DNA of 63,359 nt, taken from NCBI GenBank assembly GCA_050700385.1, contig JBOHGT010000392.1, positions 1 to 63,359 on the forward strand, written 5' to 3'. Shown in pieces: positions 1,482 through 26,600 of this stretch; the stretch's first letter is position 1; each line of letters opens with the position of its first letter. This DNA is from Pseudonocardiaceae bacterium. GTDB lineage: Bacteria; Actinomycetota; Actinomycetes; Mycobacteriales; Pseudonocardiaceae. The notes under the pieces are model-generated. The model was not told where the DNA came from. It saw nothing but the letters and a program-made list of their open reading frames with translations, and made no database searches. Position numbers and translations under genes: made by a program.

Positions 1482-2109
1482 GTCCCATCGCGGGCCACAC
1501 CTCACCTCCCTCCCATCAACAGTCCGCAACCGGCTGCCTACCGGCTGGCGCTGCGAGTACCCTGCACGTAGGCCTTGCACCCGCTGCAATGGCGGAGCTG
1601 ATCGCCCAAATCGCCGCTGACCTGGAGTGACGAGCCGGCTGGTCGAGCTGAGCCGCGACGAGGACCGGAGAGGAGCGTGAGATGCCTGCGCAGGACCTCA
1701 GCGTCACCCAGCGGCGGAAGAGCAGTCGCAGCTCCGACGTTGCCAACCGTGTCGAGGTTGCCATCACCGGTGCGGCGGTCGCGGCACGCGACTCCAAGCA
1801 CCTCTCCGGCGCGATGCTGGTCGTCAGCCCACGGACGTGGGCCTCGGCCACCGCCCTCGTGCGTGGCGGCAAGTTCGGCTGGGTGTCTGGTGACAGCTAG
1901 TGTGACGAGCAGCCGAAGCAGCGCTCAGGCAGCACGGTCCCTGTACGGACGGCAGAACGCGCGACATGAGTTTCTCGAAGAGTTCAAACGCGTCGTCAAC
2001 ACGAGCACACCTACCACCGTCCTTCTGGTTGGCGAAGGCGGCATGGGAAAGACTCGCTTCCTGATTGAGGTCGAATCCGCCCTGCGTGACCAGTACCCGA
2101 ATGTCACGG
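1482..2109. repeat. Direct repeat copy R1 (~630 bp): intergenic leader + DUF397 gene + first ~70 codons of the STAND ATPase. Partner at 8224..8854.
   Basis: By-eye alignment of 1482-2109 with 8224-8854. Long identical runs (gtcccatcgcggg..., ccatcaacagtccgcaaccggctgcctaccggctggcg..., ggccttgcacccgctgcaatgg...) with scattered substitutions and indels. Confidence 0.85.
1682..1900 (+). CDS. DUF397 domain protein
   Basis: 72-aa ORF with the RRKSSRSSDVANRVEVA...AARDSKH signature. GGAG-rich RBS upstream. Its stop codon lies 1 nt before the STAND GTG start. Confidence 0.85.
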   Translation: MPAQDLSVTQRRKSSRSSDVANRVEVAITGAAVAARDSKHLSGAMLVVSPRTWASATALVRGGKFGWVSGDS

Positions 2110-4391
2110 TTGCCTACGGCCGCGCGCTCGCTCAACATTCCGAGAGTAACAGCTTTCAACCGGTACGCGAAGCGCTGTCCGACCTAGTATTCGAAGCGCA
2201 ACGTGGGAAGCGTGACCGATTTTTACGGCGTATTTCTCGAAGCATGCGAGAAACCGCACCAGATTGGTTGCAAGCGGTACCAGCGGTTGGAGATCTGCTG
2301 TCAGCAGCAACCAAGACGGTGGCAAATGTTCGCCGTGCAGAACCCGAAAAAACGCCTGACGATTCTCTCGTGCGACAATTCTGCCGTCTTGTCGCAGATA
2401 TTGTTGATGAAGGCCCGTTCGTCTTATGTCTTGACGATCTACACTGGTCTGATGCATCCACAGTGGATCTCATCTATTCGTTGACACAGATGGTTGAGCA
2501 GGGAAAGTTCTTACTTGTCTGCGCTTATCGCGAAGACGCCCTTCGTATATCCCGCGACACGGCACACCCGTTGCTCGAAACTCTTTTTCGAGTCGAGCGT
2601 TATGCGCGCGTTTCTCGAATCGAGCTGGTCAATCTGGGCCCTGAGCACGTGACCCAACTGGTATCTGAGGTTCTTGGGCGACCGCCACTACCTGCGCTCG
2701 TCGAACGTCTGATGAGCATCACTGCCGGCAACCCTCTGTTTGTGCACGAATATCTGGGTCTGCTAATTGACCGGCTCGGGCGTGATGCTCCGGCTTCTGC
2801 CTATATCGACCACTTATCTCCGACAGCGGGAGGCCAGCCACCGCGTCGCGTCGAAGCTGTGATCAAAGAGCGTCTACTACGTCTGACCGATGACGAGCTA
2901 CGAATCCTCGAGATTGCCGCGCTGCTCGGACCAGTATTCTCGCCGAACGAACTGCTCGCTGTGCTGGACACCAGCGTCGATGCAGCGCGAAGGGGGCTCA
3001 GGTCGCTGGGTCGACGGCACGCACTCATTCACGCAATCGAAAATTCGCAGCGTGAGCCAGGGTACGCTTTCCACCACCCTATCGTCGCTCAGGTGCTTGA
3101 TTCTAGACTTCGCGAAGCCGACCCCTTTGATTACCAGGAGCTACATCGTGCGATCGCTGAGCATCTTCACACGAGCGGCCCACGTGATTTCAATGCTCTT
3201 GAGCGGCTTGCCCACCATACAGCGGCGTCCGGGGACAAACAGGCGGCCCTGAGCGCCGCCCTCGAGGCGGCAAAAATTGCATGGTCGATGGGCGCGGCGC
3301 GCGAGTGTCTAAGATTATTGAAGAAGGTTACGCAGGAGGTCGGCGACGATCCCTTCGGCAGCGACGATCTGCTACGGACTATAGGCCTCCGGCTACGTGC
3401 ACACAACGCAGTTGCTGATCACGACGGCGCAGTCGCGTTCGGAAATCTTCTTCTCTCCAATGCTTCATTGTTCACTAGGCTGTCCGCTCACGCCCGGCTC
3501 GCGTATGCAAGAGCACTCAGAATGACAAATAACTGGACGAAAGCACGTATACAGCTTGTACCAATGACCCTCGACGACTCGGCCTTCCCGAGAGATGTAC
3601 GAGCCGAAGCCTTACTGCTAATCGCCCAAATCCACCTCTGTGGCGTGCGCCCATCCGCTTCTGAGGCTCTTGTAGCACTAGCGCAGGCACGAACGCTCAC
3701 TGACGATCCTCAGATTGTCTATCAGATCCTCGGACATGTCGGACTGTCGCACCTCGCACTTGGTGACGTCTCCCAAGCTTTCTCGGCACTTTACGAGGCC
3801 GCAGCCGAATCTAGTCTAACGAGACATCCTCTAGATCGATATGAAGCTGTGCACTGGCTATCAAAAGCACAGATCGCTTGTCTGCGATTAGATGATGCTC
3901 TTGCCTCGATCGGCGAAATCGAGCACATAGCTGCTTCCACCGGAGTTGCGGGATCCGTTCCATTCCACTTGCGCGACCGTGCTCGTGTGTTAGCGTTGCA
4001 GGGTAGGATCAGTGAAGCCGCCCACTTGTACGCCCGCTATTTGGAGTCGGTGAGCTTGCTGATTTCTCCTGTGCAGTTCTGTCGTGCGCTAGCAACTCTC
4101 GCATGTCAAGTGTTGGAGCTCGGCGAACCAGAGCTTCTCCAACGCAGCGCTAACTTTGCGGCCGAGCTGGAGCGTTGTCTGCCTGCAACCTGCTTGACTG
4201 ACACACAGATGAGCGACGTACGGGCCGTTGTACAGATGGCGCCATACTTTCGATCAGTTTATGACGTGCGTGCCCGGATCTGTCGCGATGGGCTTGCGAC
4301 CGAGGACGAGTTCGATGCTGCGGAGGCAATTTTTCGCTTTGACGTGCCGGACCTCCGCTCCCTCAGACATCGACTGACCGGTGGAGCGTGA
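1902..4391 (+). CDS. STAND / AAA_16-type P-loop NTPase with a C-terminal helical (TPR-like) repeat region. No recognisable effector or HTH domain.
   Basis: Frame of ORF 1677..4391, with an in-frame GTG at 1902 just after the DUF397 stop. YGRQ..EFLEEF lead-in, Walker A VGEGGMGKT, Walker B LCLDDLHWSD, and a long alpha-helical repeat tail. Visibly lower G+C than the flanks. Confidence 0.8.
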   Translation: MTSSRSSAQAARSLYGRQNARHEFLEEFKRVVNTSTPTTVLLVGEGGMGKTRFLIEVESALRDQYPNVTVAYGRALAQHSESNSFQPVREALSDLVFEAQRGKRDRFLRRISRSMRETAPDWLQAVPAVGDLLSAATKTVANVRRAEPEKTPDDSLVRQFCRLVADIVDEGPFVLCLDDLHWSDASTVDLIYSLTQMVEQGKFLLVCAYREDALRISRDTAHPLLETLFRVERYARVSRIELVNLGPEHVTQLVSEVLGRPPLPALVERLMSITAGNPLFVHEYLGLLIDRLGRDAPASAYIDHLSPTAGGQPPRRVEAVIKERLLRLTDDELRILEIAALLGPVFSPNELLAVLDTSVDAARRGLRSLGRRHALIHAIENSQREPGYAFHHPIVAQVLDSRLREADPFDYQELHRAIAEHLHTSGPRDFNALERLAHHTAASGDKQAALSAALEAAKIAWSMGAARECLRLLKKVTQEVGDDPFGSDDLLRTIGLRLRAHNAVADHDGAVAFGNLLLSNASLFTRLSAHARLAYARALRMTNNWTKARIQLVPMTLDDSAFPRDVRAEALLLIAQIHLCGVRPSASEALVALAQARTLTDDPQIVYQILGHVGLSHLALGDVSQAFSALYEAAAESSLTRHPLDRYEAVHWLSKAQIACLRLDDALASIGEIEHIAASTGVAGSVPFHLRDRARVLALQGRISEAAHLYARYLESVSLLISPVQFCRALATLACQVLELGEPELLQRSANFAAELERCLPATCLTDTQMSDVRAVVQMAPYFRSVYDVRARICRDGLATEDEFDAAEAIFRFDVPDLRSLRHRLTGGA

Positions 4392-5521
4392 GCGGCGTGC
4401 GACGTATGTTCTCGCTCGATCGAAGTTGTGCTTATCTGAACCATGGTTCGTTTGGTGCGGTTCCCAAAGCCGTCCAGGACGCACAAGTGTCCGTGCGGCG
4501 CGACATAGAGGTCAATCCGCATCGATTTTATAGCCAAGAATACCCGAAGCTTCTCCGCGATGCCCGGCGGTGCGTCGCCGAGTGGATTAATCACGAAGCT
4601 GAAGGGCTCGTGTTTGTCAAAAGTGTCACAGAAGGAGTGAATGCGGTCATCTGGTCGGTACCTCTTTCAACTGGTGACGAGGTTGTTACAACGTCACATG
4701 AGTATGACAGCTTGCTCGAGGCGTGGCGGCGACGCTGCCGGAGCGCCGGAGCCAAGTTAGTAGTTGCTGATCCGTCGTACACCTCGATGGATGACTGGAT
4801 GCGTGACCTGTCGAGCTACATTTCTGACCGTACGCGTGTATTGTATCTTAGTCACATTACGTCATCGACTGCGTTACGTGTTGATATTGGTGCGCTCGTG
4901 AGCGCAGCGAGGCCCAAGGGTACCGTGGTCATTATTGATGGAGCCCATGGACCAGGACACATTCGACTGGGTCTTGGTGATATAGGATGTGATGTCTACA
5001 TTGGTTCTCTGCACAAATGGGCGATGTTTCCGCGTGGTGCTTCGTTTATTGCCGCAGCGCCTGATGTGCGCGACACAATGGAACCATCACTCGTAAGCTG
5101 GTATCATGACGAAATGCGCCTGGCCAATCGATTTGAGTGGCAAGGTACCTCGGATCCGAGTGCTTGGCTGGTCGCCGATACGGCTATTGACTTTGTACAT
5201 CGCGCCCAAGCTATGGGAGCTTATGATCGCGCGGCGCGTCTTTCGATGCACGCGGAGTCTCGTCTACTGGATATTGAAGGCGTGGTACCTGTCACGCCCG
5301 CTTCTATGCGGCCTCCGTATTTTTTTTCTGTCACGCTTGATGTCCCGGAGAGCGTACTGAGGTCCGCCCTTCATAGGGCGAACGTTTGGGCATGGACTGG
5401 TTGGTGGGGCGGGAAGACCTTGATGCGCATATCAACGTTCTTGTATAACGACAAGAGTGAAATCGAGCGCTTGGTAAATGTTGTTCGAGGAATTGTCCGG
5501 GAGACGGTGGGTTCGGCATGA
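4388..5521 (+). CDS. Class-V aminotransferase-fold PLP-dependent enzyme (isopenicillin-N-epimerase / cysteine-desulfurase-like)
   Basis: YLNHGSFGAVP N-terminus and the IDGAHGPG...GSLHKW PLP-lysine context. Its start overlaps the STAND stop (GTGA). Confidence 0.75.
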   Translation: MSGVRRMFSLDRSCAYLNHGSFGAVPKAVQDAQVSVRRDIEVNPHRFYSQEYPKLLRDARRCVAEWINHEAEGLVFVKSVTEGVNAVIWSVPLSTGDEVVTTSHEYDSLLEAWRRRCRSAGAKLVVADPSYTSMDDWMRDLSSYISDRTRVLYLSHITSSTALRVDIGALVSAARPKGTVVIIDGAHGPGHIRLGLGDIGCDVYIGSLHKWAMFPRGASFIAAAPDVRDTMEPSLVSWYHDEMRLANRFEWQGTSDPSAWLVADTAIDFVHRAQAMGAYDRAARLSMHAESRLLDIEGVVPVTPASMRPPYFFSVTLDVPESVLRSALHRANVWAWTGWWGGKTLMRISTFLYNDKSEIERLVNVVRGIVRETVGSA

Positions 5522-6435
5522 GCGTTGTGATCCCACGGTCGCTGCACGATGCGATCATTTTCCTCCAAGGAGAGGCTGATGGTGGCGAGTGGCTCCGGGT
5601 TCTCCCGGCTCGGATTGACACGTTTGCAAGCTCGTGGTGTTTAGTTCCTGAAGAGGTTCTAATCGGTGGTGCCATGTCGTGTTGCGTCGCTTGCACCGAT
5701 GCGGAGGGCGACCTCTGTGTGCTGAAGATTCCGATCGACGTAGCAACGGGGCGATTGGAAGCGGCTGCGCTCACGTTCTGGGACGAAGGGGGCGGCGTTC
5801 CGACGATCAAGCGTATTGATGACGAGTCCGGCACGATCCTGATGCGTTTCGTGGAGGGGGGTGCTGTTGGTATGGCTTCGGTCGCGTCGTTTGCGGACTT
5901 ATTGGGCAGGCTGCATGGGAGAGATCGACTGCCAGCTCGTAATGATTTCCCCGATCTTGAGTCCAACATAGCCATGCGGACGTCTTGGGCGACTGATCGT
6001 TTTAATATCCCGGAGTATTCGGAGGGTTTGATATACTTGCCGACGGCCAGGCGTCTGGCCACCCGACTGCTCGAGGACGGAGAACTTTATTCCAAACTGT
6101 GCCACGGCGATCTTCAGACGAAGAATATCCTCACAAGTGTGAGCGGTGCCTACGTTGCGATCGATCCGCTCCCGGTGGTAGGAGACCCGCACTTCGACGC
6201 CGCGTTCTGGTGTGTAATGCAAGATTCTTCAGTATCTATTCGGTCGATGCTTGCCGAGATTGGTAGGCGCCTACCGCAATTTGGGGTTGACCGTCTTAAT
6301 AGATGGGCCTGGGTAATCGCTGCGCTCGAGCTTCGGCCATACCTTGCAGCAACGAGAGACCGAATGTTGGCCTACTTGGACGAACAGCACGCGTGGATCA
6401 GATCTACGACTCTAGGACAGACTAGTACAGATTAG
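5518..6435 (+). CDS. APH-fold (aminoglycoside/streptomycin-6-kinase-like) phosphotransferase
   Basis: Brenner-type motif LCHGDLQTKNIL followed by VAIDP. Its start overlaps the upstream stop (ATGA). Confidence 0.7.
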   Translation: MSVVIPRSLHDAIIFLQGEADGGEWLRVLPARIDTFASSWCLVPEEVLIGGAMSCCVACTDAEGDLCVLKIPIDVATGRLEAAALTFWDEGGGVPTIKRIDDESGTILMRFVEGGAVGMASVASFADLLGRLHGRDRLPARNDFPDLESNIAMRTSWATDRFNIPEYSEGLIYLPTARRLATRLLEDGELYSKLCHGDLQTKNILTSVSGAYVAIDPLPVVGDPHFDAAFWCVMQDSSVSIRSMLAEIGRRLPQFGVDRLNRWAWVIAALELRPYLAATRDRMLAYLDEQHAWIRSTTLGQTSTD

Positions 6436-6438
6436 AAT

Positions 6439-7572
6439 TTGGAGATGCTCCGCGCAGGCGCTACTGTATGCAGTGATGGCGATGGCTCCGATGAGCTCAG
6501 AGACAATCATCGGGACTACCGGTGGCACCGGCTACAGGTCCCCGCAGCGGCAGCGGAATCAGCGGACTGGCGGCCGCCCTGGAACGAACAATCCGGAGGG
6601 AGAGCCTTACTGGTGCCGACGAGACTCCCTGGCTCAACCCCGCATTTCAGCTATTGGCTGGTTGATCGAATCACGGCCGCCTTGACCGCCTACGCCTGCG
6701 GAGACGCGCTCGGCCTGCCGTATGAGAACCTCCCGCCGTCGGGTGTGAGCCGTGAGGAGATCGAGCAGCTCACGCCCCGCGGTGGTTGGCAGCGGGGTGC
6801 GACCTCCGACGACACCGCCCTCACGGTGCTGGTGGCACGGCATCTGGCGGACCGGGGTGGCGCCGGTGACGCGCGGGCGTTCCTCACGGCCCTGGCCGTG
6901 CAGGCACCATCGATCACCGGGCTGGGCCCGTCCACGTCGCGGGCGATTGAGCACTACCGTTTCACGGGTGAGCTGCCCGTGACCGGTGGCACCACGAACG
7001 GGGCGGCCATGCGTGCGCTACCGGTCGGCTGGGTGACACCCGTCGATGACCCGCAACGGCGCAGGAACCTGGCCATCGAGATGGCCCGTGCGACCCACCC
7101 GGATCCCGACGCCCAGTGCGCCGCATGCGTGGTGGCGGCATGTGGATCCTGGGCGTTGGAGGGTGCCGGACCGGGTGTGTTGCTCGAGATCGCAATCGAG
7201 GAAGCGACGCAGGCGTCGCAGGCGTGTGGTGCCACTCGACGCTTGGGCGGGATGCTCGAGCAGGTCGCCGAAGGCACCTGGCGGGCTCCCGTCCAGGGGG
7301 TCAGTCTTGATCCCGCCGAGACGGTGACGGCCGCGCTCGCCTGCGTCACACACGCGCCAGACCTGCGGGAGGCACTCATCCAGGCGATCGGGTTCGGCGG
7401 CGACACCGACACCGTAGCCGCGATCGTCGGCGGCATCCTCGGTGCCGGACTGACCCGTGACGAGGTGCTTGCCGAACTGCCCTGGCATTCCGTAGTGCTG
7501 CTGCCCGATGCCGACGATATAGCGGGGATCGCCGCGGGTCTGGCGTCAGCCCGGGCCTCGTCGTCCAGCTAA
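6439..7572 (+). CDS. ADP-ribosylglycohydrolase family protein (start uncertain; an in-frame GTG at 6613 is plausible)
   Basis: ACGDALGLPYE, TSDDTAL, GTTNGAAMRALP and GFGGDTDTVAAIVGGILGA motifs. G+C returns to the high background from ~6450. Confidence 0.8.
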   Translation: MEMLRAGATVCSDGDGSDELRDNHRDYRWHRLQVPAAAAESADWRPPWNEQSGGRALLVPTRLPGSTPHFSYWLVDRITAALTAYACGDALGLPYENLPPSGVSREEIEQLTPRGGWQRGATSDDTALTVLVARHLADRGGAGDARAFLTALAVQAPSITGLGPSTSRAIEHYRFTGELPVTGGTTNGAAMRALPVGWVTPVDDPQRRRNLAIEMARATHPDPDAQCAACVVAACGSWALEGAGPGVLLEIAIEEATQASQACGATRRLGGMLEQVAEGTWRAPVQGVSLDPAETVTAALACVTHAPDLREALIQAIGFGGDTDTVAAIVGGILGAGLTRDEVLAELPWHSVVLLPDADDIAGIAAGLASARASSSS

Positions 7573-8223: not shown

Positions 8224-8854
8224 GTCCCATCGCGGGGGAGACCTCACCCTCCTTCCATCAACAGTCCGCAACCGGCTGCCTACCGGCTGGCGCCGGTGAG
8301 TATCCTGTACGTAGGCCTTGCACCCGCTGCAATGGTGGAGCTGATCGCAGCCCAGATCACCGCTGACCTGGAGTGACGGGCCGGCTCGGTCGAGCAGAGC
8401 CGCGGCGAGACCGGACAGGAGCCGAGATGCCTGCGCTGGACCTCAGCGTCGCCCGGTGGCGGAAGAGCAGTCGCAGCTCCGACGTTGCCAACTGCGCCGA
8501 GGTCGCCGCCACCGGTGCGGCCGTCGCGGCACGCGACTCCAAGCACCTCACCAGCGGTTGCTGGTCGTCAGCCGACGGCCGTGGGAATCGTTCACCGCAG
8601 CCATGCGCAGCGGTGAGTTCGGCGGCGTGTCTGGTGACCGCTGGTGTGACGAGCAGCCGAGGCAGCACTCACGCAACACCGTCCTTGTACGCTCGACAGA
8701 AACCGCGACATGAGTCTCTCGAAGGGTTCAAACGCATCGTTAATACAAACACCCCTACCATTGTCATTCTGGTTGGCGAAGGCGGCATGGAAAAGACTCG
8801 CTTGCTGATTGAGGTCGAGGCCGCCCTGCGCGACCAGTACCCCGAATATCACGG
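8224..8854. repeat. Direct repeat copy R2 (partner of 1482..2109)
   Basis: See R1. Homology ends at ~8854, where copy 1 continues into the STAND gene and copy 2 runs into unrelated lower-G+C sequence. Confidence 0.85.
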
Positions 8855-8900: not shown

Positions 8901-10564
8901 ATGCCGAGGACGGCACGTCCCGCGAGCACACAATGCGCCTTCCTCGAGGAGAGTACTCGTGACGGACTGTCGAATATTCGCGGAAAAGGCGCATCCGGCA
9001 TCTTGAACGAGTCAGTCCGCGTCAATAGCGAACCAGAGATTATTGGGTTCGGTGCGCTGAATGTTGACTACATCGCCAGCGCCTCCCGGCTGTCCCAAAG
9101 CATGGCCGAAGGGGTCACGCGTCTACAGCGCGCTTCGAATGGAACCGTGAAGGTCCAGTGGACGAGAATACGATCACCGATGCGATGCAGAACCTTGGCG
9201 CAGCGTCGTTGAACTCCTCGCTGGGGGGATCAGCCTGGCTGACGATCTTCTCACTGGCCCAGATGAGGGTCGGTGTGCGCCTGGGCTACGTCGGTGTAGT
9301 CGGCCGGGTGGAGGCACCGGGACTTTCGTTCATCGGTCAGATGGACGAACTGGGCATCGACCGTCGCTGGGTAGGTCAATATCCGAACCGGCTTTGCGGG
9401 CTCTGCTTGTCCTACATCGACGACACCGATCGGGTGATGCTTACCCACCCCGGTGCCAATTTCGAGATGCACAGTCATATCCAACAGAACTTCCATGATC
9501 TTGCGGCCTACCTGGCTTCCGCCCGCTTCGTCCATGTCACCTCGTTTCTGGATGAGGCGACGCCCGCAGAGGTGTTGAAGGTGCTGACCAGGGCGAAAGA
9601 GCTGAACCCATGGCTACGCATCAGCTTCGATCCCGGATTCGACTGGTCGGAGCACACGACCCTAGAGGTTGACGGCATCTTGGCGCTGACCGATATTCTT
9701 TTCGTCAACTATCGGGAGTTCAAGGCGCTGGGCCGGTATTCACACGCTGAATCCGATGGTGCGATTGCCCGCAAGGCGCTAGACCGGTGCGCCGTCGGAT
9801 GCACTATTTTCGTCACCAAACGCTATGACTTTGTTGAGGCGTTCCGTGCGACCTCTGACGGGATGCTCGTCCACCCGTTTCAGCTGCGTCGGCCGCTGCA
9901 GGAAACGGAACTGGAGGACGCGACGGGCGCTGGCGACGTCTTCGCCGCCGCGGTGCTTGCATCTTTAGCTTCACGGCGGCTACAGGTGGAGCTCGGCGCG
10001 TTCCTCGGGCTCAGCCTGGCACGACACAAGATGCGGAAAAGGGCTTCCGCCGACAATCAGATCCTGCCTGACCTCAGCAAGGGCTTTCTGCAGCAAACCG
10101 AGACGCTGTCCGGCGCCGACCTGCAGCCCACCGGAGTGTTCCTGGTGCACGATGAGAATCTGCAGTGGCGCGCTGTTCGACGTTTCATCGAGGTAGACTG
10201 TGGACTGACAACGTACGAGGTGAGGTCCGCCGATGTTGGCGAGGACAATTTGGCCGGTCTAATGCGTGAGCATCTTGCCCGTTGTAGCTTTGCGGTCTGC
10301 CTTCTCAGCGCCACGGAGACGATGGCCGACGGCCACACCCGCGCTGATCAGGATATTGTCTACCAGGCAGGCATCTTCCAGGGCCGATACGGCTTCGGGC
10401 GGGTCGCGATACTAGCCGAAGAGGGCTGTCATACATTTTCCAACATCGCCGGACTGATTCGGCTGAGCTATTCCCGAGGGCTGGTGGACAGCACCTTCTT
10501 CGAGCTGGAACGTATGTTACATCGAGAAGGCTTGATGCGACGAGGAGGCGGGCCACGTGTCTGA
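8901..10564 (+). pseudogene. PfkB (ribokinase-fold) kinase fused to a C-terminal TIR-like (COG4271 / Cap12-PycTIR type) domain, copy 1. Frame change near 9100-9135 and degenerate motifs.
   Basis: The N-terminus EIIGFGALNVDYIASAS is in the frame of ORF 8901..9212. The rest (FEWNREGPVDENTI...LGGSAW...EDATGAGDVFAAAVL...GVFLVHDENLQW...FAVCLLSA...ADQDIVYQAGIFQGRYGFGRV) is in the frame of ORF 9158..10564. It is collinear with copy 2. Confidence 0.7.
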
Positions 10565-12158
10565 GCTGTACGATCATGTTGGTGGCGGTGCTCAGCTCAA
10601 CGACTTCACGCTCGATGTGGTCGGTGTCGGGGCGCTGAACTTGGACTATATCGCCAACGCCTCTGCGTTGTCAGGGCAGACACCTTTGCGTTCGCTAACG
10701 ACGCGCATTTTCGAGTTGATTGATCGGATGGGGCCGCCACTGGAGTGGGGAACAGAACGACGTGTTGATAGTCACACGATCCACGCCGCCATCGAGGCGG
10801 TCAGCTCCGCTCGGCCGGATACCTCACTTGGAGGTTCGGCATTCAATGCTGTCTACGCCATAGCCAAGGCTCGGGCGGGGCTTCGGCTCGGCTACGTCGG
10901 AGTCGCTGGACGAGTGCCCGTCATCGGCGTGTCAAGCATCCGGCAGTTCGAAGCTCTCGGCGTCGATCACCGTTTCGTGTTACAGGACGACAAACACTTG
11001 TGTGGTATCTGTTTCTCTTTCTGTGAAGACGGTGAGCGCACCCTGCTGACTCACGCAGGCGCCAACGAGTACATGGCGGACTATATTGATCGCGAGTTCG
11101 CCGACATCGTGGCTTACCTGTCCGGTGCACGCGTGATTCACTTGACGTCCTTCCTGGACAGTAGAACCGCTGAGCGCATGCTCGCGGTGTTGAAAGCGGT
11201 CAAGATGGCCAATCGTGGCACGCTGATCTGTTTTGATCCGGGGCACGTATGGAGCGTGGATCCTACGCCGGAGATCCAGGGCATCGTCCGGATCAGCGAT
11301 TATTTACTGGTTAACTACCGGGAGTTTCGCGAGCTCGGCGAATGTGGGCCCGATGACTCGAACGACGATGTGGCGGCCAGGCTGTTGGGACGGTTCGACA
11401 GCGAGCGAAGCGTCGTCATAGTCAAGCGTCCCACCGGCATCTGGTCCTACTGGCGAGAAGGCGAAAAGGTCATTAGCGACTTCTACCCTCAGGTTCCATT
11501 GCCTGTCGAAGAGGTTGCAGACGCCACCGGAGCCGGCGACGTCTTCGCTGCTGGCCTTCTGATAGTCTTGACCAACGACAAGTTGCAAGTCGAGTTGGGC
11601 TCGCTGCTTGGCATGCGGTTGGCCAGGCACAAGCTACGATACGTCGGCAGCGCCGGCCATGCGCAGTTCGCCGAGGTTACGCGGGACTTCATCAGATCAC
11701 TCGACGCCGAGCGGCGCACCAGGCTACAACCGAAAGGTGTGTTCATCGCCCACGGAGCCAATCCCGAATGGCTGGCCGTCCAGCGTTTCATCGAAGAACG
11801 ATTCAAGCTGCCGGTGTACTCGTTTGAGAGCGGCTCCTGGGGTGGGCGCCAAGTAACCGAGGCGCTCGCCAGTTATTTGGAAAAGTGCAGCTTCGCGATC
11901 TGCGTGCTCACCGCGGAGGATTTTACTGGAGACGGCCGAAAACATGCCCGCCAGAACGTAGTTCACGAAGTCGGCTTGTTCCAAGGTAGGCACGGATTCG
12001 ACCGGGTGATGGTGCTGGCCGAAGAGGGATGCAACTTCGTGCCGCAGGCGGCCAACCCCTACACAATCTCATTTCCCCATAACGGAATCGACCAGACTTT
12101 TTATCGACTCGCCGAGATGATCCGGTCTCAGGGCTTCGGAGCAGCGGAGGTAACTTGA
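10557..12158 (+). CDS. PfkB (ribokinase-fold) kinase fused to a C-terminal TIR-like (COG4271 / Cap12-PycTIR type) domain, copy 2 (intact)
   Basis: 533 aa. VVGVGALNLDYI, LGGSAFNAVYA and ADATGAGDVFAAGLL are PfkB signatures. From aa ~392: GVFIAHGANPEW...CSFAICVLTAEDF...KHARQNVVHEVGLFQGRHGFDRVMVLAEEG is the TIR-like family signature. 8-nt overlap with copy 1. Confidence 0.8.
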   Translation: MSELYDHVGGGAQLNDFTLDVVGVGALNLDYIANASALSGQTPLRSLTTRIFELIDRMGPPLEWGTERRVDSHTIHAAIEAVSSARPDTSLGGSAFNAVYAIAKARAGLRLGYVGVAGRVPVIGVSSIRQFEALGVDHRFVLQDDKHLCGICFSFCEDGERTLLTHAGANEYMADYIDREFADIVAYLSGARVIHLTSFLDSRTAERMLAVLKAVKMANRGTLICFDPGHVWSVDPTPEIQGIVRISDYLLVNYREFRELGECGPDDSNDDVAARLLGRFDSERSVVIVKRPTGIWSYWREGEKVISDFYPQVPLPVEEVADATGAGDVFAAGLLIVLTNDKLQVELGSLLGMRLARHKLRYVGSAGHAQFAEVTRDFIRSLDAERRTRLQPKGVFIAHGANPEWLAVQRFIEERFKLPVYSFESGSWGGRQVTEALASYLEKCSFAICVLTAEDFTGDGRKHARQNVVHEVGLFQGRHGFDRVMVLAEEGCNFVPQAANPYTISFPHNGIDQTFYRLAEMIRSQGFGAAEVT

Positions 12159-12604: not shown

Positions 12605-13036
12605 CTATGACCTCAGCGCGGTGAGGGCGTGCGTGTCGAGCGGGTCCACCCGGCGCAGACCGTCGAGACAGTCGAACGCCCGATCGGTCGTAACGATCAC
12701 CTCACACCCCGCGTCGATCGCAACCGCCGCGTGCAACCGGTCAGCTGTCCCGAGACTCGATGGCGGATACTCCAGAGCTGCACGCAGATGGTCCGACGTC
12801 ACGCTGAGCAGGACGGGGAACAGCTCGGCAGCCGCCCGAGCGGTTCCCCCAGGCAGCGACGGTCGCCCCCGATGCTCGAGATGCCACACTTCTTCGATCA
12901 CGAGGACCGAGGTGATGGCCGGCAACCGCCCGTCCGCAACCTACGACATGATCTCGGTGCACGCCGGTCGCTGGGGGGCCTCGTACCGGGTGTAGGCGAT
13001 GACAACGGCATCGATGAACGCGAGCACGCTTGTCAT
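12605..13036 (-). pseudogene. vapC: PIN-domain toxin VapC with an in-frame amber stop at 12941-12943
   Basis: An ATG at 13036 overlaps the antitoxin stop (ATGA). Reading is MTSVLAFIDAVVIAYTRYEAPQRPACTEIMS-TAG-VADGRLPAITSVLVIEEVW...LHAAVAIDAGCEVIVTTDRAF, all in one frame. The track reports only the distal part (12605..12925). Confidence 0.8.
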
Positions 13037-13290
13037 CTCGGCGGCAGGAGCTTGTCGACGCGATCGTCGAGCAGCGCTTCGAGCTCGTCCGGGTCCGGCG
13101 CGGGAGCCACGACGGGGAGGGCATCGAAACGTGCCCAGCTGGCCCGGCGCTGGGGATCCCGCTGGCGTGGGAACGCCTGGTCGATCGCCTCACGCACCAG
13201 CTCCGTCACCGGCACCCCCTGGACCCGGGCCATATCCCGAAGGTGTGCCGCCTGGTCCGGCCGAAGAAGGATCTGCAGCCGCTCCATCAC
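13033..13290 (-). CDS. vapB: Ribbon-helix-helix (CopG/VapB-type) antitoxin
   Basis: MERLQILLRPDQAAHLRDMARVQGVPVTELVREAIDQ. The internal ATG of ORF 13033..13335 was chosen as start. Confidence 0.7.
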   Translation of the reverse strand: MMERLQILLRPDQAAHLRDMARVQGVPVTELVREAIDQAFPRQRDPQRRASWARFDALPVVAPAPDPDELEALLDDRVDKLLPPR

Positions 13291-13406
13291 CATACATATA
13301 GCATACACACGCTCCGAGCGAGGACGAACGGTCACAGCCGGAACGAGGGCGACGACGACACCGTTAGGATCGCAGCGTCACACATCGGTAGCCGGGAGGG
13401 TGCACG

Positions 13407-16400
13407 GTGGCGCACGGTCGCAGACCCGTAGTACCCAACCCCGGCCCGCCGCCTGCGGTGCAGCATTGGTTCCAGGAGCGCCCGTCCGAATACGCCTGGG
13501 AGCAGGACGGGCTGGACCACGTCAAGAACCTGATGCCCAACGCCGAGCCCTACCGCGCCTGGGCGACCTTCTCCTTCACCGCAGCGTCCGGACGGATCAA
13601 CGAATGTGACCTGTTGATCGCCGTACCCGGCGGCCTGTACCTGGTCGAGCTCAAGGGACACCCGGGTCACGCGGTCAACAACGGCGAGACCTGGAGCTTT
13701 CACGAGCCGGACAGCGGCCGGGTGCGGCCGCTGCGCAACCCGTTGCATCTGATCGACCTGAAGTCCAAGGAGCTGAAGACCCGGCTGGAATGGGCGGTCA
13801 AGCAGCTCGGCATCAGCGAGAAGATCCCGCGCGTCGAGCCGGCGATCTTCCTCTCGGCCCCCAACCTGAGCTCGGCGCTGGACGAGGTCCAGCGGACCCG
13901 GGTATACGGCAGGGACGACGTAGCCAGCGGGCTGCCGTGGATCTGGCGGGACTTGCTGGCCAGGCCACCGCAGCGGGAATCCAGGCCGATCACTCCGGAA
14001 TTCTCCCGGGACGTGCTGCCGAAGCTGATGGCGAAGATCGGCATTCGGGCATCGACGGCGCATCTGCGGTTCGGCGATGACTGGATGCTGCAGCCACAAC
14101 CGCTCGACGCCGGCCCGACCTGGGAGGACCGGCTGGCCGAGCGCACGGGGATCGTGCGGGAGGAAGGCAGGGTTCGGATCTACCTCACTGCCCAGCAGGC
14201 CACCGAGGAGGCCAAGCGTTCGGTCACCCGGGCGGCCCAGCGCGAGTACCAGGTGCTGCAGGGCATCACCCACCGCGGGATCGCGCAAGCGGTGCAGATC
14301 CGGGAACACCAGGGCGGCCCGGCGATCCTGTTCCACCACAAGCATTCCGATCTACGGCTGGACGCCTATCTCGCGGTGCACGGCGAACGGCTGACCCCCG
14401 AGATCCGGCTCGACCTGGTGCGCCAGCTCGCCGAGGCGCTGCGGTACGCACACCACCGCTCGCTCTACCACCGTGCGCTTGCCGCCCGCTCCGTCTACGT
14501 CTCGACCAGGGGCGACGGCTCAGCGCCGGTGCTGCGGATCATTGACTGGCAAGCGGCGGCCCGGGACTTCGACACCACGACCCTGCCCTCCATCGGCGGC
14601 AGCTCGCTGACCGGGGAACACCTGGGGGACACCACCGGCGTGTACCTGGCCCCGGAGTTCGACACGCCCTATGCCGACCCGGTCGATCTCGACATCTTCG
14701 GCCTCGGCGCGGTGGCCTACTTGATCCTCACGGCTCAAGCACCGGCAACGCAGCGCAGCGCCCTGATCGACCGGGTGACCGCCGACGGCGGCCTGCACCC
14801 GCACGCCGTGGTCGACGGCCTCGCGGACGCCCTGGACAAGCTGATCTTCCAGGCCACCCGGTCCGGCATCGCGGAGCGGCTGGACTCGGCGGACCGATTC
14901 CTCGACGAACTCGATCAAGTCGAGCAGGACTCACCGGCGCCCGAATCGAGCACGCCGAGTGTCGATCCGCTCACCGCGGTGCCCGGCCAGCAGGTTGACG
15001 GTCACTGGTGCGTGGAACGGGTGCTGGGTACCGGCGCCACCGCCCGGGCACTGCTGGTCACGTGGACCGGAGAGGATGACGAGGGGGAGGCTGCACACAA
15101 GCCACACGTGCTCAAGATCGCACTGGACGAGCACAAGGCGGCCCGGCTGCAGGCCGAGGCCCGGGCGCTGGAGCTGGTCGGCGGTGGCGTGGTGGTGCAG
15201 TTGCTGGGTGGCCCGCGCGAGCTTGGTGGCCGGACCGTGCTCGACCTGGAGTACGCCGGTGGGGCATCGCCGAGGTACCCCGGCGGGGAATCACTCGGAG
15301 CGCGGCTGCGGGCCGAGGGCAGGCTCAGCTACCACGAGCTGGAGCGCTTCGGCGGCGACCTGTTCACCGCGCTGGACCAGCTGGCCGCCAAGGGCGTGCG
15401 GCATCGCGACCTGAAACCGGACAACTTCGGCTTGTACCGCCGCGAGGACCGGTCCTGGCAGTTGATGCTGTTCGACTTCTCCCTCGCCGGCATCTCCGAG
15501 CGCGACATCACGGCGGGCACCCGGAGCCACCTGGACCCGTTCCTCGGCACCGATCGCCGGCCGGTGTTCGACGACCATGCGGAACGCTACGCGGCGGCGG
15601 TCACCCTGCACGAGATGGCGTCGAACGCCCGTCCGGTGTGGGGCGACGGCATCACCGACCCACGCACCACGACGGACGAAACGCCCACCATCGCCGTCGA
15701 ACTGTTCGAGCCCGCGCTGAGCGAGGGCCTGACCGCGTTCTTCCAGCGCGCCCTGCACCGCGACGTGGACCGCCGGTTCGACACCTTCCGGCAGATGGAG
15801 GGCGCCTGGCGGGCGGTCTTCGCGGCAGCCGACGCGGCGGCTCCCGCCACCACACCGGCGACGATCGGCACGGACGCGGACAGCCTGGAGGAGACGCGGG
15901 ACGCGGCGGTGGATGCCGCGGAGCTGGACACCCCCTGGAAGCGGCCGGGCTGTCGCCGCGTGCCGTGTCGGTCGCACACACATTCGGCGCGACAACGGTC
16001 GGCGAGCTGCTCGATGTCCGGCTACACCGGATAGCCAAAGCCCGGGGCGCTGGAGCGGTGATCCGCAAGGAGCTCAACCGGCGACACAAGCAGTGGACGG
16101 CGAGGCTGCGTCGCCCGGAGCGGGAGCAGCCCACACCGCAGCCCGCCGACCAGACGGGGCCGGACGGGGCCGCTGCGCCGGATGCTGCGGGGCCGGACAG
16201 GGCGGCCGCCGCTCGACTGACGGTCGACAGGATGGCCGCGCTGCTCAGCCCGTCGCCCGGACCCAAGGGCTCGAGGAAGAGCGATGTGGTCCGGCTGATC
16301 CTCGGCCTGCCCCGGCCCGATGACGGCACGCAACGCGAGACCGGGCAGCCGGTGTCGTGGCTTACCCAGGGTGGGATCGCCAAGCGGCTGGGGATCACCC

Positions 16401-17860
16401 AGGCCAGTGTGTCCCGCCATCACCAGTCCGCGATCAAGGAGTGGGCCGCGGCACCCTGGCTGGCCGGCGTGCGCGACGAGCTGGTCGAGGTGGTCGCCGC
16501 AGCGGGCCGGGTGATGGTGGCCGAGGAGCTGGCCGCCGCGCTGCGGGTGAGCCATGGCGCCTCCGAGGACGAACCGCCGGACCGCACGATGGCCAAGGCG
16601 TCCGCGGTGGTGCGCGCAGCGGTCGAGGCCGAAGCCTGGCCGGGCGACGACCGGGACACCGGAGCCGGGACGGAGCCGCGCCTCGCCGTGCTGCGGCGCG
16701 GCCAGCGGGTGTTGTTGGCGCTGGAGTCGCTGCCCGGCACCGACGATCCCAGCGCACCGGAGCTGGCCGACTACGCCTCCGCTCTGGGACGCAAGGCCGA
16801 CGAGCTGGCCGGCCAGGACCCGCTGCCAGGCCGCAGTGCGGTGGTGCGCGACCTGCGTGCCGTCCCGGCACCGGAGGGGCTCGCCCCGCTGGCAGACACC
16901 CGGCTCGTCGCGCTGGCGGCGGGGGTCTCGTCCCGGGTCGCGGCCTCCCCACGGCTGGAGCTCTACCAGCGTGACCTGGACCTGACCCGGGCGCTGCGCA
17001 TCTCGCAGGCCGCAGCGGGGGTTCGCCGGGACCCCGGCATCACGAACGACGAGCTGCTGGCGAGGGTGCGAACCAGGTTCCCGGAGTTGGCCATCGACGA
17101 CCGGGTGACCCATGTACAGGTCGAGGAGGCGCTCAAGGCCGCCGGTTTCTCGCTGGAGTACGAGCCCGCCGGCAAGCGGTTCCGGCCACCGGGCCCGGAG
17201 TTCGGGTGGGCGGTGACGTCGACGAGCACGGCGATGAGCAGGCACGGGCGGATGGCGGCGGCCGGGCTCGACCCGCATGCCGTGATCGCCGCCAAGCTCG
17301 CCACCGCCGTGCAACAGGGCGGGTTCCTGGCCCTTACGCTGCGGGGCCACCACCTGCCGGGGACCGCACAGGCTCTGGCCGCTGCGCACGCCGTCCGCCC
17401 GGTGGACCTCAATCGGGAGTTCCTCACCGAGTTCCGGGCGCTGGCCGCCGAGCGCGGCCAGGACTGGGGCAAGGTACTCACCATCGACGCCAGGTTCGCC
17501 GAGACCGGCCAGATCTCCCCCGGCCTGGGCTCTTACCTGCGTGCCGTCTGGGCGCGGGTCGAGCAGCAGCTGCTAGACCTGGCGTCGGAGGAGAATACGG
17601 TGCTGTTTGTGCACGACGCCGGGTTGCTCGCGCGGTACTACGACGCGGGTGGGCACGACGTGCTGGTCCGGCTGCAGGGCGCCGCCCGGCGACCAGCGGA
17701 CGTCCCGCACGGGTTGTGGCTGCTGTGCCCGGCGGAATCGACGTCGGACACCCCGACGCTGGACGGTCGGACGGTCGAAGTGCACGGTGATGCCGAGCGC
17801 GTGGTGCTCGACCGGACGTTCCTGGACGGGCTGGGTCGCGAGTCAGGCAATGCAGCGTGA
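13407..17860 (+). pseudogene. pglW: BREX type 2 / Pgl serine-threonine kinase PglW (NERD-like N-terminus, degenerate kinase, active-looking kinase, HhH-like segment, long C-terminal region). Single-base frame break at ~15931-15936.
   Basis: ORF 13407..16034 carries ECDLLIAVPGGLYLVELKGHPG (NERD-like), YHRALAARSVYV (HRD degraded), then VRHRDLKPDNF...LFDFSLAG. ORF 15638..17860 continues sensibly from PLEAAGLSPRAVSVAHTFGATTVGELL. The junction is at a C5 run. Genomic context is pglX/Y/Z, brxD and brxHI. Confidence 0.85.
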
Positions 17861-23655: not shown

Positions 23656-26600
23656 GTGGCGGCGAGCGGTGTTGACCTTGCGGAGCTGGTGAAGGACCTG
23701 CGCAGGCAGGTCATCGCGCTCGAAGCGGATCTGCGGTCGCGCAGCGACGAGGTTGACGAGTTCGCGGCGGCGCTGCAGAGCGAGTACGAGCAGGCGTATG
23801 AGGCCGGGCGAACGGCGGCCACCCATGGAGCGTGGCGTGACACGCGGGTTACCCAAGCTGCTGCCGCCTGGGTGCTGGCCACCGCGTTCGTCCGGTTCTG
23901 CGAGGACAACGGGCTGATCGAGTGGCCGTTCATCGCCGGTCCCGGTGAGCGGCTGGCCGATGCGGAAGAACGGCATGACGCCTTCCGGGAGCACCCGCAG
24001 CTCAATGATCGTGACTGGCTGATCGCCGCCTTCGATCACCTGGCCTCGATGAGCCCGACGGTGGCCGGGTTGTTCGACCGGCGGCACAATCCGCTGTGGG
24101 AGCTGACCCCGTCCTTCGAGGCGGCGACCGCGTTGCTCGGGTTCTGGCGGCGGCGCGGGGCCGACGGGGAGATCACCTACGACTTCACCGACGACTCATG
24201 GGACACCCGCTTCCTCGGAGACCTGTACCAAGACCTGAGCGAAGACGCCCGCAAGACCTACGCACTACTGCAGACCCCGGAGTTCGTCGAAGAGTTCATC
24301 CTCGACCTGACCCTGGAGCCAGCGATCGAAGAGTTCGGGCTGGCACCGGCCGTCGAGATCCACCGTGCCGACGGGTCCGTCGAAAGCGTGCCCACCCTGC
24401 GCACGATCGACCCGGCCTGCGGGTCCGGCCACTTCCTGCTCGGCATCTTCCACCGGCTGTTGGACAAGTGGCGGGTCGCCGCGCCCGGCGTCGACGACTG
24501 GGAGCTGATCCGGCGGTCGCTGGAATCGGTGCACGGGTGCGACAAGAACCCGTTCGCGGTGTCCATCGCGCGATTCCGGTTGCTGGTGGCCGCGATGCGG
24601 GCGGCCGGAGAAAGCCGGTTGGACCGGGCTCCGGGCTTTCCGCTCAATATCGCGGTGGGTGACTCCCTCCTGCACGGCCGTGGCGCCCCTGCCGTGCAAC
24701 TCCAAGCCGAGATACGCGACGGCGAGTTGAAGGAGCCCGAACCGCACACGTACCGCACCGAGGACGTCAAGGAGTTCATGGACTCCTGCGACCTGCTCGG
24801 CCGATCATCCTATCACGTCGTGGTCGGTAACCCGCCCTACATCACGGTGAAGGACAAGCAGGAGAACGAGAACTACCGAGCTTACAGCGCCTGTTCCGGC
24901 AAGTATGCGCTGTCGGTCCCCTTCGCCCAGCGACTGTTCCGACTAGCGATCCGCACGCTCGGCTCGGACCGCGACGCTGGGTTCGTCGGGCAGATCACTG
25001 CGAACTCGTTCATGAAGAGGGAGTTCGGCAAGAAGCTCATCGAGAACTTCTTCCCGACCGTCGACCTCTCGCACGTCATCGACACCTCAGGTGCATACAT
25101 CCCGGGACACGGCACGCCCACCGTCATCCTGGTCGGCCGCAACCGAACCCCACGGCAGTCCGATCCCATCCGCGCCATTCTCGGCATCCGGGGCGAACCG
25201 TCACAGCCCGAGGAACCCGCTAGGGGACTCGTCTGGTCCGCCATCGTCGACCAGGTCGACAAACCCGGCAACGAGTCCGAGTGGATCGGCGTCGAGGACG
25301 CCGAGCGCACCGCGTTCGCTACCTTTCCTTGGAGTCTTGCTGGAGGCGGCGCTTCAACGATTCTCGCGTACCTCGATAAAGAGTCGCGCAAAGCCGGAGA
25401 TCTGCTTAATCGCCCCATCGGATTTGCGAGCTTTCCAGGTCAGGATGAAGCGTTCTTCCTGTCAAAGCAGTGGTTCGACCAACGCGCGATTCCAAGCGTC
25501 ATGCGTAGAGCGCTCGTTATCGGCGAAATTGTCCGCGACTGGTATGAGCATTGTGATCAAGACGCATTAGTCCCGTATTCGCTAGACCAGGAACCCGTTC
25601 CCTTCGATCTGGCTACGTCGTGGGGACGGCATCTTTGGAGTATGCGCCGTGTACTCGGCTCCACTACCGGCTTCGGTGGCGAGACTCGGGCGGACTCGGA
25701 CGAACCTTGGTGGACGTGGTACCGATGGGTTCCTGAGCGATACCGAACACCGCTGTCGATTGCTTTTGCGTTTGTGGCGACACACAATCACTTCGTGCTG
25801 GATCGGGGTGGGAAGGTGTTCAAGCAGTCGGCACCAGTCATCAAGTTGCCGGAGGGGGCGAGTGAGCACGACCACTTGTCGCTGCTGGGGGTGCTCAACT
25901 CATCCACGGCGTGCTTCTGGCTGAAACAGGTGAGCCAGTCGAAGGGCAACGGTGGTATCGGTGGCGGCATCTCCGACGAGCTGTGGGAACATCGGTACGA
26001 GTTCACGGGGTACCAAGCTGCAGGGGTTTCCGCTGCCTGAGGTGCTGCCGCTTGACCTTGGCCAGGATCTGGACGGCCTCGCGCAGCGGCTTGCCACGCA
26101 AGAGTCGGCGGCTGTGTGTGCGACAGCCGTGCCGACTCGGGCGAGCCTTGGCGCCGCGCGGGCCGAGCATGAGCGAATCCGGGGGTGGATGATCGCGCTG
26201 CAGGAGGAGTTGGACTGGCAGGTGTATGGATCATACAACCTCCTTTCAGAGGCCGAGACCGGCCAGCTCACCGTCAAGGATCTCGACACCGTGCCCGGAG
26301 TTAAGCTTGGTGAGCGGGCGTTCGAGATCGTGCTCGCCCGCAAGTTCGCTGCCGGGGAGACGGAGACGGTGTGGTTCGCCCGCCACAGGTCTACGCCGAT
26401 CACGGAGATCCCGGCGCACTGGCCGGAGGAGTACCAGCGGGTCGTGCAGGTCCGGATCGACGTGATCGAGAAGCGGAGGGACATCGCGCTGATCGAGCGG
26501 CCGGAGTGCAAGCGGCGCTGGGCCTCCGAGCCGTGGGAGAAGCGGGAGGAGGAGGCGCTGCGGACCTGGCTGCTGGACCGCTGCGAAGACCCCGACCTCT

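Follow-up and report, generated by a model that had tools for sequence, protein, structure and literature searches.

Immunity in bacteria, plants, and animals relies centrally on TIR and TIR-like NADases as effectors, and how these enzymes are switched on is frequently an open question. This question is raised by a locus of a Pseudonocardiaceae bacterium (contig JBOHGT010000392.1, positions 1 to 63,359, the whole of this stretch being referred to here as the window), in which two neighboring genes at positions 8901-12158 place a kinase for small molecules, its active site apparently intact, where a cyclic-nucleotide sensor would be usual. The two genes, designated copy 1 (A-type) and copy 2 (B-type), follow each other on the plus strand, share 40% identity across 459 amino acids (aa), and each combine an N-terminal PfkB kinase domain (PF00294) with a C-terminal TIR-like domain of the Cap12/PycTIR type (PF10137). 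We propose, with a probability of roughly 0.5, that they constitute a self-contained and mobile A/B module of the NAD-degrading conflict type, in which the kinase serves as the input rather than as a processor of the products of NAD cleavage.

Domain composition of the two genes

The affiliation of the C-terminal domains with the Cap12/PycTIR family had been put forward in a preliminary description of the locus, and it was supported here both by profile and by structure. The PF10137 (CAP12-PCTIR_TIR) profile matched residues 395-493 of copy 2 (E value, 3.5e-17; 62.9 bits) as well as copy 1 (E value, 2.5e-11; 44.0 bits), with a cut-off of 24.7 bits. When an AlphaFold2 (AF2) model of residues 379-533 of copy 2 (predicted local distance difference test [pLDDT], 80.5) was compared to known structures by Foldseek, the TIR-STING (Cap12) entries 9lmq and 7un8 ranked first (E values of 1e-6 to 1e-5; query TM-score, 0.55-0.60), with further matches to the TIR domains of BcThsB, TRAM, PdTIR, TLR, and SARM1. 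The PADLOC profiles which matched the C-terminal third of copy 2 were those of the candidate defense gene PDC-S35, of PycTIR (6.9e-8), and of the TIR effectors of CBASS (cyclic oligonucleotide-based antiphage signaling).

The two TIR-like domains differ at the positions of the catalytic residues. The motif RQNVVHEVG of copy 2 corresponds in the alignment to RDNVVFEFG of Cap12 (structures 7un8 and 9lmq), and its Arg465, Asn467, and Glu471 align with R78, N80, and E84 of SfSTING, in which E84 is the catalytic residue and R78, together with N80, holds the phosphodiester and the ribose (PMC9402430). Because of this alignment, copy 2 is predicted to carry the full NADase triad, of which Arg465 and Glu471 were invariant, and Asn467 nearly so, across 51 aligned B-type sequences. 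The corresponding motif of copy 1, DQDIVYQAG, presents an Asp in the Arg position and a Gln in the Glu position, and its product, while predicted to possess a TIR-like fold, should be termed a pseudo-TIR and not an NADase. The notion of one architecture shared by both genes thus holds as far as the combination of PfkB and PF10137 is concerned, but not for the TIR-like domains, which are not equivalent: the motifs quoted in the preliminary description were all found, in copy 2, while the loss of the catalytic residues in copy 1 (YQAG in place of HEVG) had been overlooked. In the wider set of matches, 149 of 172 TIR-like domains harbored the R-N-E combination, and approximately 11 representative clusters were degenerate.

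The kinase domain appears intact in both copies. The PfkB profile (cut-off, 25.8 bits) matched residues 86-341 of copy 2 (E value, 2.8e-21; 76.6 bits) and the main open reading frame (ORF) of copy 1, located at 9158-10564 (E value, 1.5e-17; 64.3 bits). GALNxDY, GG...N, NxxE, and DATGAGD with its catalytic Asp were retained in both, and we take the roles of these elements, including ribose binding by the Asn and Asp of GALNxDY, to be those of their counterparts in Escherichia coli ribokinase. The motifs were invariant in A and B alike when 15 A sequences were aligned with 16 B sequences, the GG, NxxE, and DATGAGD elements being likewise invariant in 30 A/B sequences and in the 51 B homologs, while GxGxxNxD, GGS, the Glu of NxxE, and DxTGAGD were also invariant in 24 diverse members of the wider kinase clade described below. 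An AF2 model of copy 2 (pLDDT, 78.5) matched adenosine kinases and ribokinases (Foldseek E value, ~1e-18; target TM-score, 0.69-0.81). The PfkB assignment of the preliminary description was, therefore, upheld by profile and by structure, and both copies are assigned to this family by profile and by the GG, NxxE, and DTxGAGD motifs, to which the predicted fold is added in the case of copy 2.

With ribokinase and adenosine kinase, the kinase of the pair has in common the fold (TM-score of up to 0.81), the GG, NxxE, and GAGD elements, and the ribose-binding Asn and Asp. It is set apart from them by a helical insert that follows the first strand pair, by a C-terminal helical extension, and by its membership of a distinct PfkB clade, whose members scored at least 250 bits (250-480) on a profile built from diverse members, compared to at most 140 bits for ordinary ribokinases; recurrent fusion to immune-type domains further distinguishes this clade from the housekeeping ribokinases.

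The A/B pair across relatives and insertion sites

A search with copy 2 returned 419 homologs, the best 120 of which all combined PfkB with PF10137, were almost all actinobacterial, and were named just "PfkB family carbohydrate kinase" or "ribokinase." At 10 distinct insertion sites an A-type gene was located directly upstream of a B-type gene, with overlapping or abutting ends, intact A orthologs being present in this position in related loci L005-L014 and L016-L028 (loci are numbered with the prefix L throughout). The taxa concerned comprise a Mycobacteriales metagenome-assembled genome (MAG), Plantactinospora and other Micromonosporaceae, Lentzea, two Nocardia, Bailinhaonella, several Streptomyces, and a Limnocylindrales (Chloroflexota) MAG, and the order A then B was observed in every checked relative holding both genes. 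The A orthologs displayed 50-85% identity to copy 1 and approximately 40% to copy 2, with the reverse being true of the B orthologs; because each type sides with its own copy, the duplication is old and the two genes are inherited as a pair. All 16 aligned B sequences contained R-x-N-x-x-x-E and LTAE[DN] (LTVED in one), while all 15 aligned A sequences had lost the Arg and carried Gln or Arg in place of the Glu. As judged from these comparisons, copies 1 and 2 are to be seen as a heterotypic pair that is conserved, and not as a local duplication, a feature which had previously escaped notice.

The closest relatives of copy 2 (88-92% DNA identity) retain B together with only the last ~85 nucleotides (nt) of A. 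The left boundary of the deletion is the same in L001 (9916-10005) and L015 (~9918), and, because both loci hold B and an A remnant with this common boundary, it is apparent that a B-only derivative of the module circulates in Pseudonocardiaceae. B is intact without A in L001-L004 and is fragmented, again without A, in L015, a low-coverage MAG, and one and the same deletion boundary is common to all of these loci. The possibility that A acts as an antitoxin of B is indirectly weakened by the persistence of B in these loci, and in the window alongside a frameshifted A, and A is probably not an antitoxin. In the Limnocylindrales MAG (L026/L027, 11602-15739), genes for a 906-aa AIRS/PurL-like protein, a GATase_5 protein, and a HAD hydrolase come next after the pair, with an overlap of 4 nt, and possibly represent a lineage-specific operon extension or a link to purine metabolism.

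In each of the 15 loci measured, the pair was 1 to 11 points lower in G+C content than its flanks, and the flanking genes were different at almost every site. In Nocardia aurantia (L017, 3514-12143), the pair is located, together with a gene for a 1556-aa NACHT-TIR_2-WD40 protein and an 8xMP gene, between kdpDE and kdpFABC, a clear insertion of an island into a housekeeping operon. Taken at sequence level, these observations show the pair to move horizontally between unrelated chromosomal sites. A repeat search around the pair revealed no flanking direct or inverted repeats marking the boundary of a mobile element, and no conserved third gene was found beside the pair across the related loci.

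Established or probable conflict genes were present within 10 kb of the pair at several of these sites. They include BREX-2 (type 2 bacteriophage exclusion [BREX]), VapBC, and a STAND-like NTPase in the window, which bears out the defense-island position claimed for the latter, BREX-2 and VapBC adjoining the pair; Cas1/Cas2 directly beside B in L001; NACHT-TIR_2-WD40 in L017; NNH1-NACHT in L020; nSTAND1-WD40 in L022; CHAT-AAA_16-TPR in L005; and AAA_16-TPR in L015. The association of the pair with defense genes is, on this basis, suggestive. Neither the BREX genes nor the ADP-ribosylglycohydrolase (ARH) gene upstream of the pair emerged as a partner. A role as an accessory gene of BREX type 2 was ruled out, as BREX flanks the pair in the window only and is absent from the annotated neighbors of the other loci. 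The link to ARH drawn in the preliminary description was not sustained either, since tblastn with the ARH and APH-like kinase proteins of the window detected neither in any related locus, and ARH was accordingly rejected as a conserved partner.

In plasmid and phage collections, isolated TIR-like domains matched, never a PfkB fusion, and the sole phage match was annotated as a CMP/hydroxymethyl hydrolase. One plasmid match to the TIR-like domain of copy 2 belongs to another recurrent TIR-like arrangement, unrelated to the kinase, namely, two genes with the annotation of TIR domain-containing proteins, interleaved with three DUF4238 genes and an IS5 element on Agrobacterium vitis plasmid pRvVAT039a (L032, 5383-8331).

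The kinase clade, the proposed mechanism, and its alternatives

An exhaustive search of 50%-identity representatives recovered 197 clusters at an E value of ≤1e-30. Besides PfkB+PF10137 proteins, some with divergent or degenerate TIR-like tails, the kinase clade includes TIR_2+PfkB (among them P0246, encoded on a 1.6-kb contig), PfkB+TIR_2, HTH_31+PfkB, and stand-alone forms, as well as at least a dozen class III cyclase+PfkB proteins, and the catalytic kinase motifs were invariant across all of these architectures. In the metagenomic protein P0213 (699 aa), PfkB is joined to the M48-peptidase half of the CBASS effector SAVED_peptidaseM48 (PADLOC E value, 2e-59), the match spanning profile positions 217-496 of 498 and the kinase taking the place of SAVED. 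In L030 (9377-11713 on a 193-kb contig, with a resolvase nearby), a gene for a PycTM/CBASS 2TM effector (E value, 2e-56) is directly followed by one for a class III cyclase-PfkB protein. To judge from its gene content, this locus looks like a system of the Pycsar type (pyrimidine cyclase system for antiphage resistance) in which the cyclase bears a kinase domain, an arrangement of which we know of no earlier description. One stand-alone member is located among type III restriction-modification, CBASS (SMODS, E2, and patatin), Fic, and TIR_2-TPR genes. A metagenome scan with the cyclase-PfkB profile and the pattern TGAGDVF[AV]A, the latter being too general, yielded, among the matches listed, one more A/B pair (L034), two distant stand-alone kinases with housekeeping surroundings, and no further cyclase-PfkB loci.

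Comparison to the known systems indicates where the pair stands. The closest resemblance is to the Cap12 effectors (TIR-STING and TIR-SAVED; PDB 7UN8 and 9LMQ), which belong to the same PF10137 family, provide the best structural match, and have the Arg, Asn, and Glu of SfSTING (R78/N80/E84) in common with copy 2; a two-domain design, in which a ligand-binding domain is coupled to a TIR-like NADase activated by oligomerization, would also be common to both. In the pair, however, a PfkB domain with intact catalytic motifs takes the place of STING or SAVED, the two domains come in the opposite order, with the TIR-like domain C-terminal, and the proteins come as an active and an inactive paralog. 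Membership of CBASS was ruled out, given that no CD-NTase (SMODS) gene was found beside the pair in the window or among the annotated neighbors of the related loci and that the N-terminal domain is PfkB rather than SAVED or STING. PycTIR of Pycsar possesses the same PF10137 domain, and in a sister branch of the kinase clade the fusion partner is a class III cyclase encoded right after a PycTM gene, but in this Pycsar-like relative the kinase is carried by the cyclase and not by the effector; as none of the loci has a cyclase near the pair, which itself lacks a cyclic nucleoside monophosphate-binding domain, membership of Pycsar was also rejected. Thoeris is likewise a TIR-based form of immunity, and certain clade members have a ThsB-like TIR_2 domain fused to the kinase, whereas the TIR-like domain of the pair is of the effector (Cap12) type and its two genes are mutual paralogs; with both genes encoding PfkB-PF10137 proteins and no separate effector gene, Thoeris was excluded as well. 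The best PADLOC match, the single-protein candidate PDC-S35 (6.5e-13), has the C-terminal TIR-like domain in common with copy 2, but the match covers residues 383-492 only, and PDC-S35 proteins measure 231-278 aa and lack PfkB.

No PADLOC model covers the kinase part of the pair, neither the text nor the supplements of a 2025 systematic survey of TIR systems include the PfkB-TIR architecture, and literature searches combining PfkB or ribokinase with TIR, Pycsar, or defense, the coverage of which was incomplete, returned no description of such a system. The earlier claim that no named system has this architecture was, therefore, corroborated by PADLOC and literature searches, and what appears to be new at the level of sequence is the joining of an established effector domain to a new input domain and the organization as a pair of active enzyme and pseudo-enzyme.

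In the mechanism favored here, the A and B proteins would assemble into a hetero-oligomer, the PfkB domains of which would act as the input by binding, and probably phosphorylating, a ribose-containing small molecule that changes in level upon infection. The resulting closure or oligomerization would bring the TIR-like domains together, and B would then hydrolyze NAD+ or a related nucleotide, leading to growth arrest or abortive infection. In SfSTING, the active site is made complete by a residue of the opposing TIR, and oligomerization brings about activation (PMC9402430); by analogy, the pseudo-TIR of A may represent a structural or regulatory partner. That the kinase is the input is supported by the occurrence of the same clade on TIR_2, HTH_31, and class III cyclases and, in the place of SAVED, on the M48 peptidase. 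The fallback idea of the preliminary description, in which the TIR-like domain was to sense a nucleotide controlling the kinase, survives in so far as one domain is proposed to control the other, but its direction is reversed, with the kinase as the input and the TIR-like domain as the output.

Several observations weigh against this proposal. The catalytic Asp of the kinase is strictly conserved, which a purely ligand-binding sensor would not need. In the lineage nearest to the window, A is frameshifted (window) or deleted (L001 and L015) while B is intact, and an obligatory A/B complex is, for this reason, not certain. No recognizable defense gene was found near L016, L011, L013, L014, and L028, where the neighbors include genes for aconitase, a sugar-binding protein, and peptidases; moreover, STAND genes are common in actinomycete genomes, and proximity to them represents weak evidence. 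No relative was found among phage, plasmid, or IMG/VR viral records. Lastly, the distant stand-alone kinases of L035 and L036 (33-35% identity) are located in housekeeping-looking contexts, as a consequence of which the clade as a whole is not considered exclusively immune.

A wider reading is offered more tentatively. The PfkB clade may represent a previously unrecognized immune input module, which senses an infection-linked, ribonucleoside-like metabolite by binding and phosphorylation and thereby switches on the output to which it is fused, the A/B pair being a new two-gene defense system in which a pseudo-TIR regulates an active TIR. The outputs may then comprise the Cap12-type TIR-like NADase, a ThsB-like TIR_2 domain, the M48 peptidase, and a Pycsar-type cyclase feeding PycTM. 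If true, this would introduce a new sensing principle to nucleotide-based immunity, with phosphorylation of a metabolite as the trigger, provide an example of a TIR pair composed of active enzyme and pseudo-enzyme, and add a candidate defense system for actinomycetes, in which few have been tested, and the kinase ligand would be a pointer to the signal that the cell detects during infection.

Of the alternatives, the one that fares best, and which nevertheless appears unlikely, is that the genes form an accessory metabolic pair in salvage or secondary metabolism rather than immunity, whereby the kinase would produce a nucleoside 5'-monophosphate or phosphorylate ribose and the TIR-like domain would be a MilB/BcmB-type nucleotide N-glycosidase. 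The TIR-like fold is indeed common to CMP N-glycosidases, BcmB is present in the Foldseek list obtained with the C-terminal model, and the annotation of the only phage match, the structural proximity of the kinase to adenosine kinases and ribokinases, the metabolic appearance of several neighborhoods, and the PurL-like, GATase, and HAD genes which come after the Limnocylindrales pair with an overlap of 4 nt would all agree with such a role. The Cap12/TIR-STING NADases, however, rank first in both Foldseek and sequence searches, and the phosphodiester-binding Arg is conserved. A conserved, catalytically dead paralog has no obvious role in salvage, no conserved pathway neighbors were found across the loci, and the sporadic distribution, low G+C content, and changing insertion sites, together with the sister fusions involving PycTM-linked cyclases, TIR_2, and a CBASS-type peptidase, likewise speak against this role.

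The main inference of the preliminary description, namely, that NAD+ is cleaved by the TIR-like domain and an ADP-ribose-derived product phosphorylated by the fused kinase, so that a signal is made or destroyed or depletion becomes irreversible (for example, by blocking phage pathways of NAD+ regeneration), is considered improbable. The invariance of the kinase motifs in both paralogs and throughout the clade does argue for real phosphotransfer, the ribose-binding Asn and Asp of ribokinase (GALNLDY), along with the GG and Asn elements, are kept, and the kinase has become fused independently, and in both orientations, to two unrelated TIR families (PF10137 and TIR_2). PfkB nucleoside and ribose kinases, however, normally phosphorylate a free 5'-CH2OH, which ADP-ribose does not possess. 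The clade is also found on a peptidase effector, on an HTH domain, and on a cyclase encoded beside PycTM, none of which yields ADP-ribose; A has retained its kinase despite having lost the catalytic residues of its TIR-like domain; and the pair lacks a conserved third gene that could receive a signal.

Broken genes and the neighborhood of the window

The genes of the window were found to be organized as detailed in Table 1. That the two copies are paralogous and overlap by 8 nt was confirmed: the stop of copy 1 and the start of copy 2 share GTGTCTGA (10557-10564), with GGAGG placed 8 nt 5' of the GTG start, an arrangement which suggests translational coupling. Copy 1, however, is not the single ORF from 8901 assumed earlier, as the frames of 8901 and 9158 are both needed. 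Its N-terminal piece (EIIGFGALNVDYIASAS, including GALNVDYI) lies in the frame of 8901, the likely start being ATG 8901 or TTG 9003, while from ~9118 the body continues in the frame of 9158. The previously overlooked frameshift corresponds to a 1-nt deletion at ~9117, where the window reads GGGTCA-CGCG and the intact ortholog of L005 (85% identity) reads GGGTCACCGAG; the single missing base aside, copy 1 is intact. The frameshift may reflect a real pseudogenizing deletion or an assembly error.

Table 1. Coordinates of the gene pair and its features in the window
Feature	Position	Strand	Motifs or basis
Copy 1 (A-type), PfkB + degenerate TIR-like, frameshifted	8901..10564	+	ORFs, three-frame translation, Pfam
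Frameshift site of copy 1, one base missing	9112..9122	+	DNA alignment to L005
Kinase motifs of copy 1	9221..9937	+	LGGSAW 9221-9238, NYRE 9707-9718, DATGAGD 9917-9937
Degenerate TIR-like domain of copy 1	10133..10474	+	DQDIVYQAG 10346-10372; Gln CAG 10364-10366 at Glu position
Copy 1/copy 2 junction	10544..10564	+	Shine-Dalgarno GGAGG 10544-10548, GTG 10557, TGA 10562-10564
Copy 2 (B-type), PfkB + TIR-like, intact	10557..12158	+	533 aa; ORF, Pfam, AF2 model
PfkB domain of copy 2	10608..11720	+	GALNLDY 10629-10649, LGGSAFN 10827-10847, NYRE 11313-11324, DATGAGD 11520-11540
Catalytic Asp328 of copy 2 (predicted)	11538-11540	+	DATGAGD motif
TIR-like domain of copy 2	11730..12137	+	GVFIAHG 11736-11756, LTAED 11907-11921, RQNVVHEVG 11949-11975
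Glu471 codon of copy 2, GAA	11967-11969	+	Aligns with SfSTING E84

Copy 1 is one of three broken genes in the island. PglW is split into two overlapping ORFs (13407-17860), with the break at ~15932-15942 by a C5 run, and the first PglX (23656-27292) ends at profile position 759 of 1189, its remainder probably being located close to G4 runs, in 25952-27292. Another PglX, of full length, is encoded at 38581-42195 in a separate low-G+C block. The three breaks could reflect assembly indels, phase variation, or decay, and the module of the window, with its frameshifted A, may represent B alone at work, a decaying copy, or a sequencing error. That the window copy is a non-functional remnant, with copy 1 reduced to a pseudogene and copy 2 inactive in its absence, would be in keeping with the deletion in copy 1, the splitting of PglW and the first PglX, and the loss of A by deletion in the two closest relatives, but it is improbable, given that copy 2 is full-length, keeps every family-invariant residue, and is 92% identical to its relatives, that copy 1 departs by one base from an intact state and matches an intact ortholog at 85%, and that each of the three breaks coincides with or adjoins a short homopolymer run, where assembly indels are possible; it would, in any case, bear on this locus alone and not on the family.

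The position of the pair in a low-G+C block between ARH and vapBC with BREX type 2, as first described, was borne out by G+C content, Pfam, and PADLOC profiles. The G+C content of the pair is 0.59, compared to ~0.70 in the flanking DNA; the ARH gene (6439-7572; PF03747, E value of 4.7e-44) is located upstream; and a PIN/RHH pair (VapBC) on the minus strand (12605-13335) follows downstream, beyond which lies the BREX type 2 set, composed of PglW, PglX, PglY, PglZ, BrxD, and BrxHI.

ARH is the last of four plus strand genes (1677-7572) with overlapping or abutting ends in a low-G+C block, the others encoding an AAA_16/KAP-NTPase+TPR protein (STAND-like, 904 aa), a class-V aminotransferase with weak similarity to DndA/SspA, and an APH(6)-like kinase. 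None of the four recurs beside PfkB-TIR pairs at the other loci, and the block may represent a separate, uncharacterized module. Coding fragments resembling DUF397 are present in the window at 8427-8546 and 1682-1876 (75% and 57% identity, respectively, to the DUF397 protein of L001). Genes for HTH_31/DUF5753 and DUF397 proteins are located near the module in L001, and those for HTH_31/DUF5753 alone in L015 and L019, a recurrence which hints at a common actinomycete island background.

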